From NCBI GenBank assembly GCA_000004695.1, contig CM000152.2, positions 4,800,001-4,864,000 of the forward strand: a DNA stretch of 64,000 nt, written 5' to 3'. The DNA is from Dictyostelium discoideum. Lineage: Eukaryota. The notes under the pieces were generated by a model. That model made no database searches, was not told the origin of the DNA, and worked only from the letters and a program-made list of their open reading frames with translations. Below are positions 4,047 through 20,465 of this stretch, piece after piece. Positions within the stretch are counted from its first letter, which is position 1. Every line of letters begins with the position of its first letter. The position numbers and the translations under genes are program-made.

Positions 4047-5222
4047 ATGGGTAGAGGTGGTCATACATGTTTAAATAATTATTGCCAAAATGAATTAAAA
4101 TTCGAAATTCCAAAAGATGTTACTAAAAAACCACAATTAATTCCACTATCACCAATAAATAAACAAATTTTAAAAAAAATTAAAAATAATAATAAAAAAC
4201 AAAAAAAGATGGAAAAGAAATTAAATCAATTTGAATTTTTAAATATTTTTGAAATTGATAAAAATAATATTTCATTTTCAACAACTGATGATGATGATGA
4301 TGATGATAATAATGAAAAGATTAGTAAATTAAATAATTCAATTAATAATAATAATTATAAAGAAAACAATAGTAATATAATCATTGAAAAAACACCAGAT
4401 TTAATTGAAAATGATGAATTAATAATAGACAATAATGAAAAAGAAAATCAAGAAAAAGAAAAAAAATTAAAGGAGGAGGAGGAGGAAGAGGAAGAAAGAT
4501 TATTTTTAGAATTAGAGAAAGAAAAAGAAATTTTAGAAGATGGAGAATTTAATGAAATTTTTGAATCAATTGGTGATATAAATGAAATTGGAGAAGAGTA
4601 TGAGTATCAATTAACAAATAAAAAGACTTGTTTATATAAAAGAGTGACAAAGGATAATAAGAAACCAAAGGTATCAAAAAGACCAGAAAAAGCCATTGAA
4701 TTATCAAAAGAGGCAAGAAAGAGTTATTGGTTATCTTTCCACTTCGGAAAACAATTGGATACAAGACCAAAAGAAGTTAAGATCAGTCAACTCAGTTTCA
4801 ATGGCACCGGTAAAGAAGATTCTTATGAGGCTCAATTACGTAAAGCTTTATCATTAAGTAAATCTGAATACGATAGACAAGTTAAAAAGGATATTACACC
4901 ATTATCACAACTTCAAATTAATGATATACTCAATAGAGAGTTAACACCAGAAGATTATGAATTATTACTCTTATTAGATGAAAATATTAAACCAAAAACT
5001 GTAGATGAAGATGATATCAATAAATTATTAACAGTGAAATTTGATACTCAACTCTTGCAACAATTCTCAACCTGTATGATTTGTTTATCTGATTTCGATC
5101 TTGGTGAATCAATCATTAAATTACCATGCTCTCACATTTTCCATATTAATTGTATTTCAAATTGGTTATCAAATGCTTCTACAAAATGTCCAATTGATAA
5201 TATTCCTATTGTAAATAATTAA
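4047..5222 (+). CDS. RING-H2 E3 ubiquitin ligase with a ubiquitin-interacting motif, 391 aa, single exon.
   Basis: C-terminal CMICLSDFDLGESIIKLPCSHIFHINCISNWLSNASTKCPI has C-x2-C-x13-C-x-H-x2-H-x2-C-x10-C-P spacing (RING-H2). EDSYEAQLRKALSLSKSE matches the UIM consensus. Acidic and N-rich low-complexity N-terminus. Confidence 0.75.
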   Translation: MGRGGHTCLNNYCQNELKFEIPKDVTKKPQLIPLSPINKQILKKIKNNNKKQKKMEKKLNQFEFLNIFEIDKNNISFSTTDDDDDDDNNEKISKLNNSINNNNYKENNSNIIIEKTPDLIENDELIIDNNEKENQEKEKKLKEEEEEEEERLFLELEKEKEILEDGEFNEIFESIGDINEIGEEYEYQLTNKKTCLYKRVTKDNKKPKVSKRPEKAIELSKEARKSYWLSFHFGKQLDTRPKEVKISQLSFNGTGKEDSYEAQLRKALSLSKSEYDRQVKKDITPLSQLQINDILNRELTPEDYELLLLLDENIKPKTVDEDDINKLLTVKFDTQLLQQFSTCMICLSDFDLGESIIKLPCSHIFHINCISNWLSNASTKCPIDNIPIVNN

Positions 5223-13921: not shown

Positions 13922-16440
13922 TGAAACTTCAAATCAACCACCAAAAGAATTAAATAGAGATACAAAAGATCATCGTTGTGGTAATGATAGAGATCGTGAT
14001 AGTGGATCGTGATAGTAGAGATAGTTATAGAGATAGGGATAGGGATCGTGATAGTAGAGATAGAGATCGTGATAGAGATTACCGTGGTGATAGGGATAGG
14101 GATAGAGATAGAGAAAGAGATCGTGACAGAGATAGAGAAAGAGATCGTGATAGAGAAAGAGATCGTGGTGATAGAGACAGAGACAGAGACAGAGACAGAG
14201 AAAGAGAAAGAGATAGAGACAGAGACAGAGAAAGAGATAGAGATAGAGAAAGAGATAGAGATAGAGACAGAGAAAGAGAGAGAGATCGTGATAGAGACTA
14301 CAGAGATAGAGATAGAGATTATAGAGATAGAGATAGAGACAGAGACAGAGACAGAGACAGAGACAGAGATAGGGACAGGGATAGAGATAGATATTCATCC
14401 TCATCATCATCAGCAGCAACAATACCATCATCAACAACAACAACAAATACAAATAATGAGGCACTACCACCACCTTCATCATCATCTTCATCATCTAAAA
14501 AGAAAGCACCAAGAACAATTGACACATTAAAGGATGAATTTAAACAAATTCAAGAAGAAAGAGAAAAAGACAAAAAATCAACAACATCATCATCATCAAC
14601 ATCATTGTCATCATCATCAGTTGAAGAGGAAACAGATGAAGAATATTATACAACATTATTTTTGGGTACATTATCAGTTGAATCGAATGAACAAGTTATT
14701 GATGAATTGTTTTCAACCTATGGTATTATTAATTCAATTAAAATCATTACACCAAAGAATGAAGATGATCGAAAACGTGGTATAAACTATTGTGCAATTG
14801 TAACCTATCAATTCCCAAGAGATGCCCATAATGCAATGAAAGATTTAACAGGTAAAAAATTATTAGGTCGTGAATTAAGAATTGGTTGGGCTAAAATTCA
14901 AGTTAAACAACCAAGAAATAATGAAATTAATAATTTTAATAATTACAATAATAATAATAATTTTTTTAATAACTCACATGGAATGGGTAATAAAAATAAT
15001 AATGGTCCAATTAAAATTCAAGTTCAAATACCTCAAAATTTATTTATAAAGAGTATTATTGATAATTTAGCATATTATGTATCGAAAGAGGGTTATCCAT
15101 TTGAAAAGTTAATACAAGAAAGAGAATATTCAAATATGAATTTTCAATTTCTATTCGATCATCAATCTGATGATTATTATTATTATAGTTGGAAAGTTTA
15201 CTCGTTAATTAATGGTGATACTAAAACTAATTGGAAATTAAAACCAATTGAAATGATTAAAGATTATTTAATATTTATACCACCAACAATTGATGATCAA
15301 CAGCTACAACAACAACAACAACAACAACAACAACCACATATACAAAATCCATCAACTATAGCATCCAATAGTAATATTCAACAACAACCACTTCCAATTT
15401 CATTACGTGTAAAATTTGAAGAATATGTAAAGAATTTAACAGCACAACGTGAAAAAGTTTGTGAGTTAATGGTAATGTCAATTGATAATTCAGATTATAG
15501 TTCAGATATTGTTGATATTATAGTTGGTTCATTCTTTGATTCAATTAGTAATTTAAATGGAAAAGAAAGTATAAACTCAAAGATTTCAAAACTTTATTTA
15601 ATATCTGATATATTACACAATTGTACAGTAAATGTTAAAAATGTTTCTTCTTATCGTGGTTTGTAAGTTTTTTTTTTTTTTTTTTTTTTTTATTCATTTA
15701 TTTATATTATTATTAATTTATAATTTTCTTTTATAATTAGATTTGAAAATAAGTTGGCATTGGTATTCCAAAATTTAAGTTCAACATATAGATCTATTGG
15801 TGGAAGAGTTTCAGCTCAAAATTTTAAAGAAAAAATAACAAAAGTATTAAATAGTTGGGATAAATCATCATTATATTCAAAATCATTTTTATTAGGATTA
15901 AGATTCACTTTTTCAATTTATGTTAAACCAACAACAACAGCAACAACAACAACAACAACACAAAATCAAAATATTGAAGAGGATGATGATATTGATGGTA
16001 TTCCAATTAATAGTGTTAAAAATGATGAAAATACTAAAAATAAAATATCAATGTCAACTCAACAAATTGATTTATATTGTAAAAATAATGGATTGGTTAA
16101 ATGTGATACCATTGAAGATACAATGGATAAAATCGATCAGTTTAAAAAGTGTTTGGCTCAAGAATCAGAGAAAGAGGATAAATTGCTAGCACATCAATTA
16201 TCAAAAGATATTTTGGATTCAATAGAAGATGAAATTGAAACTTATAAAAAGAAATTATCAATTAGTTCAAATAATGACTCCTCCTTCTCTCAAGAAAAGG
16301 AAATTTTAATAAATGAATATAGAGCCACTTTAATAAAAGCTGCTGCTTCTCAAAAAATATCATCACTCAAAAGAGATTTTGAAGTTGGAAATAATATTAA
16401 TAATTCCAATCGACAAACTAAACAACAAAGATATCAATAA
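13506..16440 (+). CDS. U2 snRNP-associated SURP protein (U2SURP/SR140-like splicing factor) with RRM, SURP and CID domains and an RD/RE dipeptide-repeat region. Exons 13506..15662 and 15741..16440. A frameshift at 13992..14017 interrupts the first exon.
   Basis: N-terminus KVAILPFGMSEKKLAPSTMSK...KVYNDFLSEHENKPTDTPKFVKGGT aligns with human U2SURP [22 protein letters not shown]...[60 protein letters not shown]...NYCAIVTYQFPRDAHNAMKDLTGKKLLGRELRIGWAK. SURP: IIDNLAYYVSKEGYPFEKLIQERE...FQFLFD. CID: split by a GTAAGT..TTAG intron after ...VSSYRG(L). RD/RE repeat of ~130 residues. The two long ORFs, 13506..14012 and 13978..15666, are in different frames and are joined only by a 1-nt shift inside the RD repeat. 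Confidence 0.8.
13992..14017 (+). repeat. 13-bp tandem duplication (GATCGTGATAGTG / GATCGTGATAGTA) inside the RD-repeat region. It frameshifts the SR140-like gene.
   Basis: Direct reading. Removing either copy restores one continuous frame (...GNDRDRDS-RDSYRDRDRD...). Confidence 0.85.
14020..14400 (+). repeat. Hexamer-based coding repeat (AGAGAT/AGGGAT/AGAGAC/AGAGAA)n encoding about 130 residues of (RD)n/(RE)n.
   Basis: Direct reading. The antisense and shifted frames give the spurious ORFs 13970..14494(-), 14009..14530(+) and 14319..14525(-). Confidence 0.9.
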
Positions 16441-16614: not shown

Positions 16615-17211
16615 TTAATTATTAGAAACTAATAGACTCTTTGAAACAGTTGAACCAGCAACCAAAGAAAAGCTACTTCCTAAATTTTTAAAATTAACAC
16701 CATTAGTTTGAAGGGCAAGTAACCATGATCCTCTAAAATCAAAGCCTAAACCAAATTTTGACAAATAGGTTTTTAAATCTCCACCCATGGAAAGTGATGA
16801 ATCGTCATTTGAGACCATAGCAACTACCCAACCTGGTGAAAATGATTCAATTTCTTTTAACCAACTGAGTAAGTTGGTTGATGGAGTTTCAGGTTCTTTG
16901 ACCCAATGGTGAGTATCTTCAGCTAAAATTTTTAATGTTTTAACGTCATTTGGATTAAATGCAATTGCAGTAACTCCTCTTGATTTGGCCAATATTTGTT
17001 GTGTACCAATTGAAATAAAAGAAGTTTCATATGTACTCTGAAACTTAATTTTGTTTAATTAATATAAATGAAAAAAAAGTATTATTATTAAAAAACGAAT
17101 ACTTACACCAACTGATTGTAACGTAATTGGTATTTGCTCTCCGCAATAAACCAATGATTTAGAATTTAAAAAAATAATAAAAACTAAAGAAATAATTAAG
17201 TTTGTCTTCAT
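16615..17211 (-). CDS. Secreted hypothetical protein, paralog A. Exons 17107..17211 (signal peptide) and 16615..17037.
   Basis: Exon 1 MKTNLIISLVFIIFLNSKSLVYCGEQIPITLQSVG ends at a GTAAGT donor. (T)nCAG acceptor, phase 0. Mature part STYETSFISIGTQQILAKSRGVTAIAFNP...DDSSLSMGGD...FRGSWLLALQTNG is clearly homologous to the neighbouring plus-strand gene. Confidence 0.6.
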
Positions 17212-17529
17212 TTTGTAAATATATTAATAATCAATCTAAATATATTAATATATAATTGTTTGAAATACTTTTTAATTTGAAAATTATAATTTTTTTTTTT
17301 TTTTTTTATTTGTTTTTAAAATTATTAATTTTTGAATTATTTTTTGGTTATTTTTTTTTTTTTTTTTTTTTTTTAATATTGATCAGTTTATAATCACAAA
17401 TTCTAACAACCAACACCAATAAAATTTAAATAATCAATATTGTATTAAATTTTAATTGTTTTTTTTTTAAAAATGTGTTAAATAAAGTATACACATAAAA
17501 AACACACCACCAAAACTATTTTTATTATT

Positions 17530-17710
17530 TTTTTTCCCAAAAACCCAAGTGATTCTTTCTTCAAAAAAACAGTTTTACTTTTTTCAGAAGCTCCTGATTC
17601 TGGATCTATATTTTTTTATTTTTTTTCCTAAAAACCCAAGTGGTCCATTCTTCAAAAAAAACAGTTTTACCTTTTTCAGAAGCTCCTGATTTTCGATCTA
17701 TATTTTTTCA
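17530..17710. repeat. Two tandem copies of a ~91-bp element in the shared promoter region of the divergent secreted-paralog pair.
   Basis: cccaaaaacccaagtgattctttcttcaaaaaaacagttttacttttttcagaagctcctgattctggatctatattttttt then cctaaaaacccaagtggtccattcttcaaaaaaaacagttttacctttttcagaagctcctgattttcgatctatatttttt. About 90% identical. Confidence 0.85.
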
Positions 17711-17815
17711 TATTGATTTGTAAAAATTCAATTAAATTATTGGGGTATCACCATAATGATAATACTTTCCAATTTTTGTTTTGTACTTGTCATGAAAATG
17801 TATTTTAATAATATA

Positions 17816-17865
<50 letters not shown>

Positions 17866-17954
17866 CATTCAAATATTTAAATAATTTTTTAATCAAATTC
17901 ATTCCATTACATTTAAAAAAATTGATTTATTTAAATTACAAAAAAAAAAAATAA

Positions 17955-18596
17955 ATGGAAATTAATAAAAATTATTTTTTATTGTTATTAATACTATTAA
18001 ACATTTCTAATTTTGTTTTAGGTGGTTCAATTAATCTTTCTTTAAGATCACAAGGAGTAAATTTTGGAGATAAAATATTATAATTTATTTAAAAAATTAA
18101 ATTTTACTCAATACTAATTAATATAAATATTTTTTTTTTTATCCTTTTTTTTTCAAAAAATAAAAAATAGCATAGCTCAATAAGAACTTCTTGGATTATT
18201 ATTGGTGAGAGAACATATTTATTGAATGGTCGTGGAATAAATGCATTTGCATTTGATCCATCAAATCCAAGTGTTGTAAAAATGTTAAAATCCGATACAT
18301 ATATGGAAGAGCCACCTTTTGTTAAAGACGTTTCAGTTGGTTTTACCAGCTTCGTCGGAGAGATTAAACCACGTAAAAACTGGGTAATTGCAATTGTTTC
18401 TTTAGATGATTCATATCTAAATATGAGTGAAGATGTTCGTCAATGGTTTAGAGGATATGGTATCTCTTTATCATATAGAGGTTCTTATGCATTAGTTTTA
18501 CAATCAAATGGCTTGGCTCTTAATAAAATTGCAGGAAGTTCCTCAACTATTGAAGGATCAAGTTCTGTTTTAGAGTCTGTTATTGTTTCATATTAA
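17955..18596 (+). CDS. Secreted hypothetical protein, paralog B. Exons 17955..18056 (signal peptide) and 18171..18596.
   Basis: Exon 1 MEINKNYFLLLLILLNISNFVLGGSINLSLRSQG has a GTAAAT donor. AAAATAG acceptor, phase 0. Mature part HSSIRTSWIIIGERTYLLNGRGINAFAFDP...LDDSYLNMSEDV...YRGSYALVLQSNG shares the RG-x-A-AF-P, DDS-L-M and RGS-LQ-NG blocks and the exon structure with paralog A. The two genes are head-to-head, about 740 bp apart. Confidence 0.6.
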
Positions 18597-18961
18597 AAAT
18601 TAAAATAAATAAAATGTTTTCTTTTTAAAAATTTAATACGAATTTGGATACTTTTTTACTTTATTGGTTTTAATGGCTAATGAAACATAAATTTCCATGT
18701 TGCAACTGTTTTTTAAATAATTTGTTGGTTTGATTTAATTGAAAATAATAAAAAAAAACCAAGCAATTGGAGTGGTAATAACAATAAATTTACAAAGCCC
18801 ATGATTTTTTTTTTTTTTTTTTTTTTAATTGGGGAATAAAAAAAAAAAAAAAAAAACCAAACAACCAGTTCCAAATAAAGTTTTACAAAAATGTTTATTT
18901 TATTTAAAATTATTTAATTTTTATTTAATTTAATTTCAAATTATAATAATTGAACCTTAGG

Positions 18962-19022
<61 letters not shown>

Positions 19023-19673
19023 AAAATTACAAAAAAAAAAAAAAAAATAATAAAAATAATAATAATTAAAAAAAAAAAAAATTTGTAAAGATCTTTACAC
19101 ACACCTAAATTATTTATTTAATAGTCCTTTTCATTTTTTTATCATTTTTTTTTATCAATATTTTATTTATTTTATTTATTTTATTTTTTTATTTATTTTT
19201 TATTTTTTTTTTTTTAATTTTTATTTTATTTTTTTTTTTTTTTTTTGTTCCACTTAAAAAATTCAAAAATAAACTTATCTTTTTTTTTTTTTTTTTTCTT
19301 AATATTTTAAAATTTCTTTTTTCATCCTTTTTTAAAACCTGTATATAATAATAACAATAATAATATTTTAAAAACATAGAATAATTTTCTTTTTTTTGTA
19401 TAACTTTTTTTTTTTTTTTTTTTTTTTTTTGTATAATTTTTTTTTTTTTTTTTTTTTTTTTTAAGCATATTTATTTGTACATAGAAAAACAACACATCAG
19501 TATTTTGCGCGCGCCAATAAAATAAAAATTAAAAAATTAAAAAATTAAAAAATTTATAGGAATAAATAGTTCATATTCAATAACAAATAATAAAATAACA
19601 TTCAACAATAGTAATACTAGTATCATACCAATAAAAATATAATAATAACAATAATAATAGCAAATATTACAAT

Positions 19674-20465
19674 ATGGAATCACCTGTTGTAGAGGGTAAT
19701 AGTGGCGAAGTTGCAACACCAACACTTCCACAACCACCAACACCAGTTAGTAGCAATATTAGGGTTGTATGTAGAGTAAGACCATTAACTGAATTGGAGA
19801 AAGGAAGAAACGAACATTCTATTGTACATTTTTTCGATTCAAAGTCTATCTCAATTAGAGCCAATGGTCCTCAATTTACATTCGATCGTATCTTTGGTTA
19901 CCAAGAGACACAATCTCAAATATTTGAAGATGTTGCAGAACCTATAGTAAATGATTTCTTGGATGGTTATCATGGTACAATTATTGCATATGGTCAAACT
20001 GCATCAGGTTAGTTTTTTTTTTTTTTTTATTTATTTATTTATTATATATTTACTAATAATTAATTTATAATTACAGGTAAAACATTTACAATGGTTGGTG
20101 ATCCAGATTCACATGGTATCATTCCTAGAGTTATCGAGAGTATTTTTGTGGGTATTTCAAAGATGAGAGAAAAAGATACTTCATTATCACTTGCATTTTG
20201 TTTGAAAATATCTGCATTGGAATTGTATAATGAGAAACTTTATGATCTTTATGATGCTTCAAAAAGTAATCTTAACATTAGAGAGCACAAACAAAATGGC
20301 ATCTATGTTGAAGGTATAAGTGAAATAGTTATCACAAGTATTGAAGAAGCATATAATTTTTTAAATATTTCAAATAATAATAGAGCAATTGCTTCAACAA
20401 GTATGTATTTATTTATATTATTATTTATTTGGGTTTATTTTAGGAAACTAATTTATTTATTTATT

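Follow-up and report, generated by a model that had tools for sequence, protein, structure and literature searches.

A head-to-head pair of ILEI/PANDER-fold genes and the tandem repeat between them in Dictyostelium discoideum

The gene pair and the fold of its products

Here we describe two divergently transcribed genes of Dictyostelium discoideum AX4 and the short spacer that separates them, all within a 64-kb stretch of chromosome 3 that we refer to as the window (positions are counted from its first letter). Gene A is DDB_G0281689, on the minus strand, and gene B is DDB_G0281691, on the plus strand; they lie head-to-head, with 743 bp from ATG to ATG (17212-17954), and a tandem repeat with a unit of 91 to 92 bp sits near the middle of that interval. 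The DNA of the whole region is of the Dictyostelium type, being AT-rich with short introns. By profile and by fold, the two products belong to the ILEI/PANDER/GG superfamily—the fold seen in FAM3, in the POMGnT1 stem domain, and in GG domains. Both genes are annotated already, and Q54TL2, the product of gene A, carries an ILEI/PANDER name in UniRef; this is an ordinary and unstudied gene pair. The identifiers DDB_G0281689, DDB_G0281691, Q54TL1, and Q54TL2 are not mentioned in the searchable paper texts, and a literature search for Dictyostelium together with ILEI or FAM3 found no paper linking them.

Every GT...AG pairing was tried in building the gene models, which left a single clean model for each gene. 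In gene A, exon 1 (17211-17107, minus strand) holds the start codon, a hydrophobic putative signal peptide, and the first beta-strand; it is followed by a 69-nt phase-0 intron (17106-17038, GTAAGT...TTTCAG) and by exon 2 (17037-16615), which encodes the mature ILEI/PANDER-like domain and the stop codon, in line with XP_640579/Q54TL2. Gene B has the same layout on the plus strand: exon 1 (17955-18056) with start codon, putative signal peptide, and first beta-strand, a 114-nt phase-0 intron (18057-18170, GTAAAT...AATAG), and exon 2 (18171-18596) with the mature domain and stop codon. Each product is 175 amino acids long, and the two introns fall at an equivalent position, right after an aligned glycine (the last residue of LQSVG in A and of LRSQG in B). 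BLASTP aligns A with B at 37% identity over 131 amino acids (E=1e-24), and three blocks are common to both: RGVTAIAFNP/RGINAFAFDP, DDSSLSM/DDSYLNM, and RGSWLLALQTNG/RGSYALVLQSNG. An earlier sequence-only reading of this DNA had described two paralogous genes with the same exon structure, the same three conserved blocks, and a separation of about 740 bp, all of which holds; its estimate of about 180 amino acids per product was slightly high.

The gene B model agrees with the deposited protein (XP_640580/Q54TL1) at every residue, and the gene A model is 99% identical to the deposited 177-amino-acid DDB_G0281689 protein (Q54TL2, XP_640579). The gene A intron offers two in-frame acceptors 6 nt apart, AAG (upstream) and CAG. 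The deposited protein, which reads VGFQSTYE, fits the upstream AAG and an exon 2 start at 17043; orthologue models of gene A use a CAG at the site of the window's TTTCAG, giving an exon 2 start at 17037 and products of 175 or 176 amino acids. In UniRef, Q54TL1 is named 'Phosphodiester glycosidase domain-containing protein'; that name was not reproduced, as a Pfam scan at E<=1 yields ILEI alone.

The same reading had left the protein family unassigned and had suggested a profile or structure prediction of the mature domain; these now place both proteins among the ILEI/PANDER (FAM3-fold) domains. Pfam PF15711 (ILEI, 'interleukin-like EMT inducer') matches A at E=1.8e-5 (25.6 bits) and B at E=1e-5 (26.4 bits), spanning 86-88 of the 90 model positions, and a Dictyostelium purpureum relative (P0010) scores 42.7 bits against the same model. 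Precomputed PF15711 matches also exist for several orthologues; the gene tables, where they give a grade, call these weak or faint. A profile built from nine Dictyostelium sequences alone was scored against 1.84 billion representative proteins and retrieved 48 at E<=1e-3, with multi-ILEI proteins reaching 1e-17; ILEI domains are present in eight of the ten matches scanned with Pfam, several of them in repeated form (up to 418 bits). When this profile was compared by hhalign with 13 non-Dictyostelium ILEI domains, the two aligned over 122 columns with 98.2% probability (E=4e-14). Searches of the PDB with a single sequence or the narrow profile gave chance-level matches only (Dpo4 polymerase IV at E ~0.6-1; FAM3A at 0.34), so that a broadened profile was needed; with it, TMEM2, FAM3B, FAM3C, the POMGnT1 stem domain, and FAM3A are found at 1e-19 to 1e-21. 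An AlphaFold2 model (predicted local distance difference test score, pLDDT, 82.9) adopts the FAM3-type beta-beta-alpha globular fold, and its best Foldseek matches are POMGnT1, FAM3B, TMEM2, and FAM3C, although identity to the solved structures is only 14-17%.

The POMGnT1 stem domain binds beta-linked N-acetylglucosamine (GlcNAc) via Arg129, Asp179, and Arg207, a triad that FAM3 proteins have retained; in vitro, GlcNAc and other sugars are bound by FAM3C and FAM3A (PMC9802357). In the alignment to the broadened profile, the triad can be located by its spacing of 50 and 28 residues as the RG, D(E/D), and R(G/D)SW columns. The residues R55, D113, and R137 of both A and B fall in these columns and are invariant in nine of nine Dictyostelium sequences; the conserved blocks noted earlier are thus the domain signature that carries the triad. 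Together with the fold, this conservation suggests that A and B may bind sugars. The N-termini are strongly hydrophobic—the best 11-residue Kyte-Doolittle mean is 3.49 in A (LIISLVFIIFL) and 2.75 in B—and the AlphaFold2 model has residues 5-18 as a helix, with a low-confidence linker (19-21) behind it, so both proteins look like candidates for secretion.

A related arrangement is found in D. purpureum, where the 390-amino-acid protein DICPUDRAFT_82094 (P0013) carries a monalysin-type beta-barrel pore-forming domain (Pfam BB_PF, residues 24-224, E=1.2e-55) and, at its C-terminus (232-390), an ILEI-like domain of the pair's subfamily (E=2.6e-20 with the Dictyostelium-only profile). From its domain order, the protein looks like a pore-forming toxin with a lectin-like targeting module. 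The ILEI-like domain sits where a targeting lectin would be, which is in line with a glycan-binding role.

The spacer and its tandem repeat

The spacer (17212-17954) has 16% G+C and most likely contains the promoters of both genes. Tandem Repeats Finder (TRF) reports an array at 17517-17708 with a period of 92, 2.1 copies, 91% matches, and a score of 319. No other array in the window scores as high, and this one alone combines high identity, a long period, and complex sequence. A duplicated 91-bp element had been described from the sequence; the tandem duplication is real, and the copies are 91 and 92 bp long, respectively. Copy 1 (17520-17610, plus strand) contains the core CCCAAAAACCCAAGTG at 17536-17551, the imperfect palindrome CAGAAGCTCCTG at 17585-17596, and GGATCTATA at its 3' end. 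Copy 2 (17611-17702, plus strand) contains CCTAAAAACCCAAGTG at 17627-17642, CAGAAGCTCCTG at 17677-17688, and CGATCTATA at its 3' end; the two cores differ by one mismatch. A degenerate partial third copy follows on the same strand (17703-17731), covering about the first 29 nt of the unit, as seen in the repeat family that pairs 17563-17639 with 17655-17731 at 86%. A gap-free repeat search splits the array into 91- and 92-nt registers by one indel, and a 30-mer taken from the unit has two exact occurrences in the window, where shuffles predict 0.00.

Each unit holds three boxes that contain G or C: CC(C/T)AAAAACCCAAGTG, the imperfect palindrome (0.01 expected per window), and GATCTATA, with which each unit ends. 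When the rest of the window and some 76 kb of Dictyostelium loci were searched, AAACCCAAGT and CAGAAGCTCCTG were found in the orthologous and paralogous spacers only. The DNA-binding domain of GtaC prefers GATC in vitro, but the spacer holds only three GATC sites against about 0.8 expected by a base-composition estimate. CACTTGGGTTTTTGGG may resemble G-box or CA-rich elements; a literature search for a definition of the GBF binding site found no usable one. The repeats lie 309-491 bp from the ATG of gene A and 253-435 bp from that of gene B.

Around the repeats, the spacer has further features of possible regulatory interest. A CA-rich block, ACACACCACCAAAAC (17502-17516), lies directly upstream of the array, and ACCACCAAA within it is invariant in four of four aligned spacers. 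A second block, GGGGTATCACCATAATGATAATAC (17742-17765), lies inside 17703-17819, the segment best kept in alignment with D. cf. discoideum, and its core GTATCACCATAATGAT is likewise invariant in all four spacers. On the gene B side, a TATA-like TATAATTAA is followed by a run of 42 T (17812-17862, plus strand) about 90 nt before the start codon, making a candidate core promoter for gene B; a TATA box with a sense-strand oligo-dT run is the classical layout of Dictyostelium core promoters. Two more oligo-dT runs, T18 (17290-17307) and T24 (17351-17374), lie on the plus strand proximal to gene A. Every long oligo-dT run in the spacer is therefore on the gene B sense strand, which makes the spacer asymmetric.

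Evolution, expression, and surroundings of the pair

We compared the window with six loci: an AX4-like locus (L001), two divergent loci labelled 'Dictyostelium discoideum' (L003 and L006), one from D. cf. discoideum (L002), one from D. dimigraforme (L004), and a paralogous locus (L005). The head-to-head pair is kept at L001, L003, L006, L002, and L004, with an additional, A-like paralogue in D. dimigraforme. Neighbour-joining recovers the B clade and the clade of A plus this third paralogue in 40 of 40 bootstrap replicates each, and the species order is equal in both; the duplication that gave rise to A and B is therefore older than the split from D. dimigraforme. The local inverted duplication proposed from the sequence fits this picture of an ancient event followed by conservation of the arrangement. 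D. purpureum has one two-exon homologue with no partner within 5 kb, and bootstrap support for where its sequences fall relative to the A/B split is low (14/40, 7/40, and 8/40). The ratio of nonsynonymous to synonymous divergence (Ka/Ks) is ~0.3-0.7 for both genes, as estimated from the coding sequences, a sign of purifying selection acting on proteins that evolve fairly fast.

Assembly GCA_054859385.1 contains the entire module twice, at the syntenic site (L006, 3660-5630) and beside ELP3 (L005, 3575-5619). Both L005 genes branch at the equivalent node of the A and B trees, and the module was therefore duplicated as a unit. The deposited 147-amino-acid product of the L005 A-like gene begins at an internal methionine; an intact, in-frame signal-peptide coding stretch (MKINLIIFLIIIFFLNSKSLVYCGEPVPI..., minus strand, ~4083-4166) is contiguous with it, upstream of the annotated start, and the deposited model thus appears truncated. 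Although L003 and L006 are labelled D. discoideum, they differ from the AX4 window by a Ks (synonymous divergence) of ~0.10 and by ~8% of protein residues—far above the usual divergence within a species—and their sources may, judging by these distances, be cryptic lineages.

The window and the loci L001, L003, and L006 each have two copies of the repeat, and so does the paralogous L005; this covers every locus of the D. discoideum complex examined. The spacing is not fixed, as the copies in L005 lie 199 nt apart from start to start against 91 nt in the window; the boxes containing G or C are the best-kept positions across the eight repeat copies. Searching by blastn with the window units found no repeat copy in D. 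cf. discoideum or D. dimigraforme, though the gene pair is present in both, and in the alignment with D. cf. discoideum the repeat is reduced to fragments such as CAAAAACCCA. Most likely, then, the repeat is of recent origin, confined to the D. discoideum complex, and a minor, lineage-specific feature of the locus. Its copies have also turned over. Both AX4 copies are 0.87-0.90 identical to copy 1 of L003 and L006 and 0.69-0.75 identical to their copy 2; AX4 copy 2 alone is 0.90 identical to copy 1 of the other lineages against 0.71-0.75 for their copy 2. Because both AX4 copies are of the copy-1 type, copy 2 would have been overwritten or re-duplicated at about the time when the lineages split, and the pattern of identities suggests that, in the AX4 lineage, copy 1 underwent gene conversion or re-duplication.

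For expression, we used the lists of genes differentially expressed at each reference time point in Rosengarten 2015 (PMC4403905, Additional file 7), the columns being decoded from their headers. Each gene identifier occurs seven times in that file, and the memberships given here are those in the columns covered. Gene B is listed under UP_Hr07_gradual for filter development and under UP_Hr03_gradual, UP_Hr06_gradual, and UP_Hr12_gradual for suspension; gene A is listed under UP_Hr12_rapid and UP_Hr14_gradual for filter and under UP_Hr12_gradual for suspension (PMC4403905). Among these columns, UP_Hr12_gradual in cyclic AMP (cAMP)-pulsed suspension is the sole list common to both, with A directly below B. 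In this part of the published lists, both genes rise in development, B from cAMP pulsing and aggregation and A at about the mound stage; their expression overlaps without tight co-regulation. The supplements of a cell-type RNA-seq paper list neither gene.

The surroundings of the pair are unrelated housekeeping-type genes: a kinesin, which starts at 19674, an RRM and Surp protein, which ends at 16440, and a NOL1/NOP2/Sun-type methyltransferase. The RRM and Surp neighbour (13978-15666) has a very long N-terminal Arg-Asp/Arg-Glu dipeptide repeat, encoded by a 6-nt tandem array of 61.7 copies (14016-14391). Downstream of gene B, at 18791-18876, runs of T22 (18805-18826) and A19 (18838-18856) around AATTGGGGAAT form a long, hairpin-like A/T inverted repeat that yields spurious sub-threshold Rfam matches (mir-3613, Phe_leader, Flavo-1). 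Between gene B and the kinesin, the divergent lineages carry a ubiquitin-domain gene (L003 2092-3468, L006 5761-7191); none is called in the AX4-like L001, and window positions 18597-19673 hold no open reading frame of at least 200 amino acids.

Interpretation and comparison with known systems

The reading we favour, and to which we give about an even chance, is that the old head-to-head paralogues A and B encode secreted, glycan-binding proteins of the FAM3 fold, that the spacer holds two adjacent promoters, and that the young repeat mainly serves gene B. Each gene encodes a putative signal peptide and one stand-alone ILEI/PANDER domain that keeps the Arg-Asp-Arg triad; the products would be small glycan-binding proteins that act extracellularly at successive stages, B from aggregation onward and A at the mound. 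The 743-bp spacer would work as two adjacent promoters rather than as one symmetric bidirectional promoter, and the tandem duplication would double a set of upstream factor-binding sites, mainly for gene B as the closer of the two, its TATA-plus-T42 core being ~110 bp downstream of the array. We are evenly divided on whether the repeat is regulatory at all, and we consider it doubtful that it acts on both genes.

Several observations weigh against this reading. The Pfam scores of A and B fall narrowly below the PF15711 gathering cut-off (27 bits), and the mature proteins have no cysteine; vertebrate FAM3 proteins are disulfide-bonded. The two gene identifiers are absent from the supplementary files searched for a life-cycle proteome study and for GtaC. 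What would tie the repeat to gene B is its distance and the orientation of the oligo-dT runs. The repeat itself is kept no better than its surroundings: between close lineages its identity is 0.82-0.88 against 0.83-0.84 for the spacer overall, and with D. cf. discoideum it is 0.63-0.64 against 0.64, the adjacent block 17703-17819, outside the repeats, being kept better there (0.78). Repeat divergence between lineages also tracks synonymous divergence (Ks 0.10-0.21); in every comparison, repeat identity is about 1 minus Ks and equal to the spacer average, and thus shows no conservation above the neutral background.

This lack of excess conservation also favours the strongest alternative, namely a neutral tandem duplication that arose by slippage or unequal exchange in fast-evolving, AT-rich DNA, the genes being driven by other elements such as those at 17502-17516 and 17742-17765. 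We regard this as a serious possibility that falls somewhat short of even. Tandem arrays are common in the intergenic DNA of the window, the block best kept against D. cf. discoideum lies outside the repeat, and the copy-1-like copy 2 of AX4 speaks for turnover or conversion rather than stable maintenance. However, in a spacer with 84% A+T, most of the non-low-complexity sequence that contains G or C falls inside the unit, and its G/C boxes are retained in eight of eight copies. Two copies are also present at every D. discoideum-complex locus examined, including the paralogous one, which has a Ks of ~0.2 and a copy spacing of 199 rather than 91 nt.

The sequence-only reading had proposed a candidate bidirectional regulatory module. 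In its full form—a single bidirectional promoter with the duplicated 92-bp element at its centre, acting both ways to co-regulate the paralogues—this now seems unlikely to us, although its positional part stands: the genes are head-to-head across 743 bp, the spacer has the repeats close to its midpoint, and the orientation has been retained since before the D. dimigraforme split. Both genes and the two-copy repeat moved together in GCA_054859385.1, and in the columns covered both genes are up in development, with suspension UP_Hr12_gradual in common. The regulatory part is somewhat weakened from several sides. In the same columns, the filter classes differ, 7 h for B against 12-14 h for A, and the early suspension lists UP_Hr03_gradual and UP_Hr06_gradual hold B only. 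D. cf. discoideum and D. dimigraforme keep the pair although no repeat is recognisable there, the repeat shows no excess conservation, and the spacer is asymmetric, with its long oligo-dT runs all on the B sense strand.

Small non-coding RNA genes in the repeat units, of the Dictyostelium class I RNA or small nuclear RNA type with a DUSE-like CCCA upstream element, were also considered and are rejected on the Rfam and folding results: TCCCAAAA and ACCCAAGT are one base off the DUSE consensus, [AT]CCCA[CT]AA, but an Rfam search at E<=10 matched nothing in the repeats or close to them, a search of the complete window at gathering score was empty, the two units fold no better than shuffled sequence on either strand (z -0.18, 1.39, 0.07, -0.09), and an oligo-T tract lies ~60 nt downstream of the CCCA boxes, so that such genes are extremely improbable. 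All that Rfam gives for the region at E<=10 lies outside the repeats and is a low-complexity artefact below threshold (mir-3613, Phe_leader, CRISPR direct repeats).

A bolder extension of the favoured reading, which we think improbable, is that A and B are free-standing amoebozoan FAM3/ILEI counterparts released in sequence, B in aggregation and A as the mound forms, which would modulate cell-cell or cell-matrix interaction, or signalling, via GlcNAc- or mannose-type glycans; the 92-bp element would then act as a developmental enhancer that sets dose, with conversion actively maintaining its two copies. If A and B were such glycan-binding counterparts, an ancestral glycan-based function of the FAM3 fold would be genetically testable in Dictyostelium, and the pore-forming fusion of D. 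purpureum would be the same module used to target a toxin.

Of the known systems, vertebrate FAM3 proteins (FAM3A-D, including FAM3B/PANDER and FAM3C/ILEI; PF15711) resemble A and B in having a single ILEI domain of similar size behind a signal peptide, which in A and B is putative, and conserved Arg-Asp-Arg positions. In contrast, A and B are amoebozoan proteins with 14-17% identity to the solved structures, Pfam scores below the cut-off, no mature cysteine, and no N- or C-terminal extensions. With no cysteines, marginal sequence similarity, and a different lineage, they stand outside the strict vertebrate FAM3 family. Partners reported for animal FAM3 proteins include FGFR and LIFR. In animals, the fold is tied to diabetes, epithelial-mesenchymal transition, and dystroglycan glycosylation, with the mechanism debated; if A and B are secreted FAM3-fold lectins, Dictyostelium would offer a simple genetic system for the fold's role.

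The stem domain of POMGnT1 (PDB 5GGF, 5GGJ, 5GGL), a carbohydrate-binding module, is alike in that its R129, D179, and R207 align with R55, D113, and R137. However, it is flanked by a membrane anchor and a glycosyltransferase catalytic domain, whereas A and B are free-standing and have no catalytic domain. The GG domain of TMEM2/CEMIP is similarly one module in a cell-surface hyaluronidase of ~1,300 residues, in contrast to the stand-alone domains of A and B. The closest non-orthologous relative of the pair's subfamily is the C-terminal domain of DICPUDRAFT_82094; A and B differ from that protein in having no pore-forming effector domain.

The spacer, in turn, can be compared with bidirectional promoters, in which start sites lie less than 1 kb apart. 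The A/B spacer is alike in being divergent, 743 bp from ATG to ATG, conserved, and provided with a repeated element near its centre; it differs in being asymmetric, and the tight co-expression that is a hallmark of bidirectional promoters is not seen for A and B in the part of the published lists covered here. By position, the spacer is therefore of the bidirectional-promoter kind, but so far not by function. For the effect of a duplicated promoter segment on a divergent gene pair, the locus, with its two paralogues and the natural variants of its repeat, is a compact natural test case.

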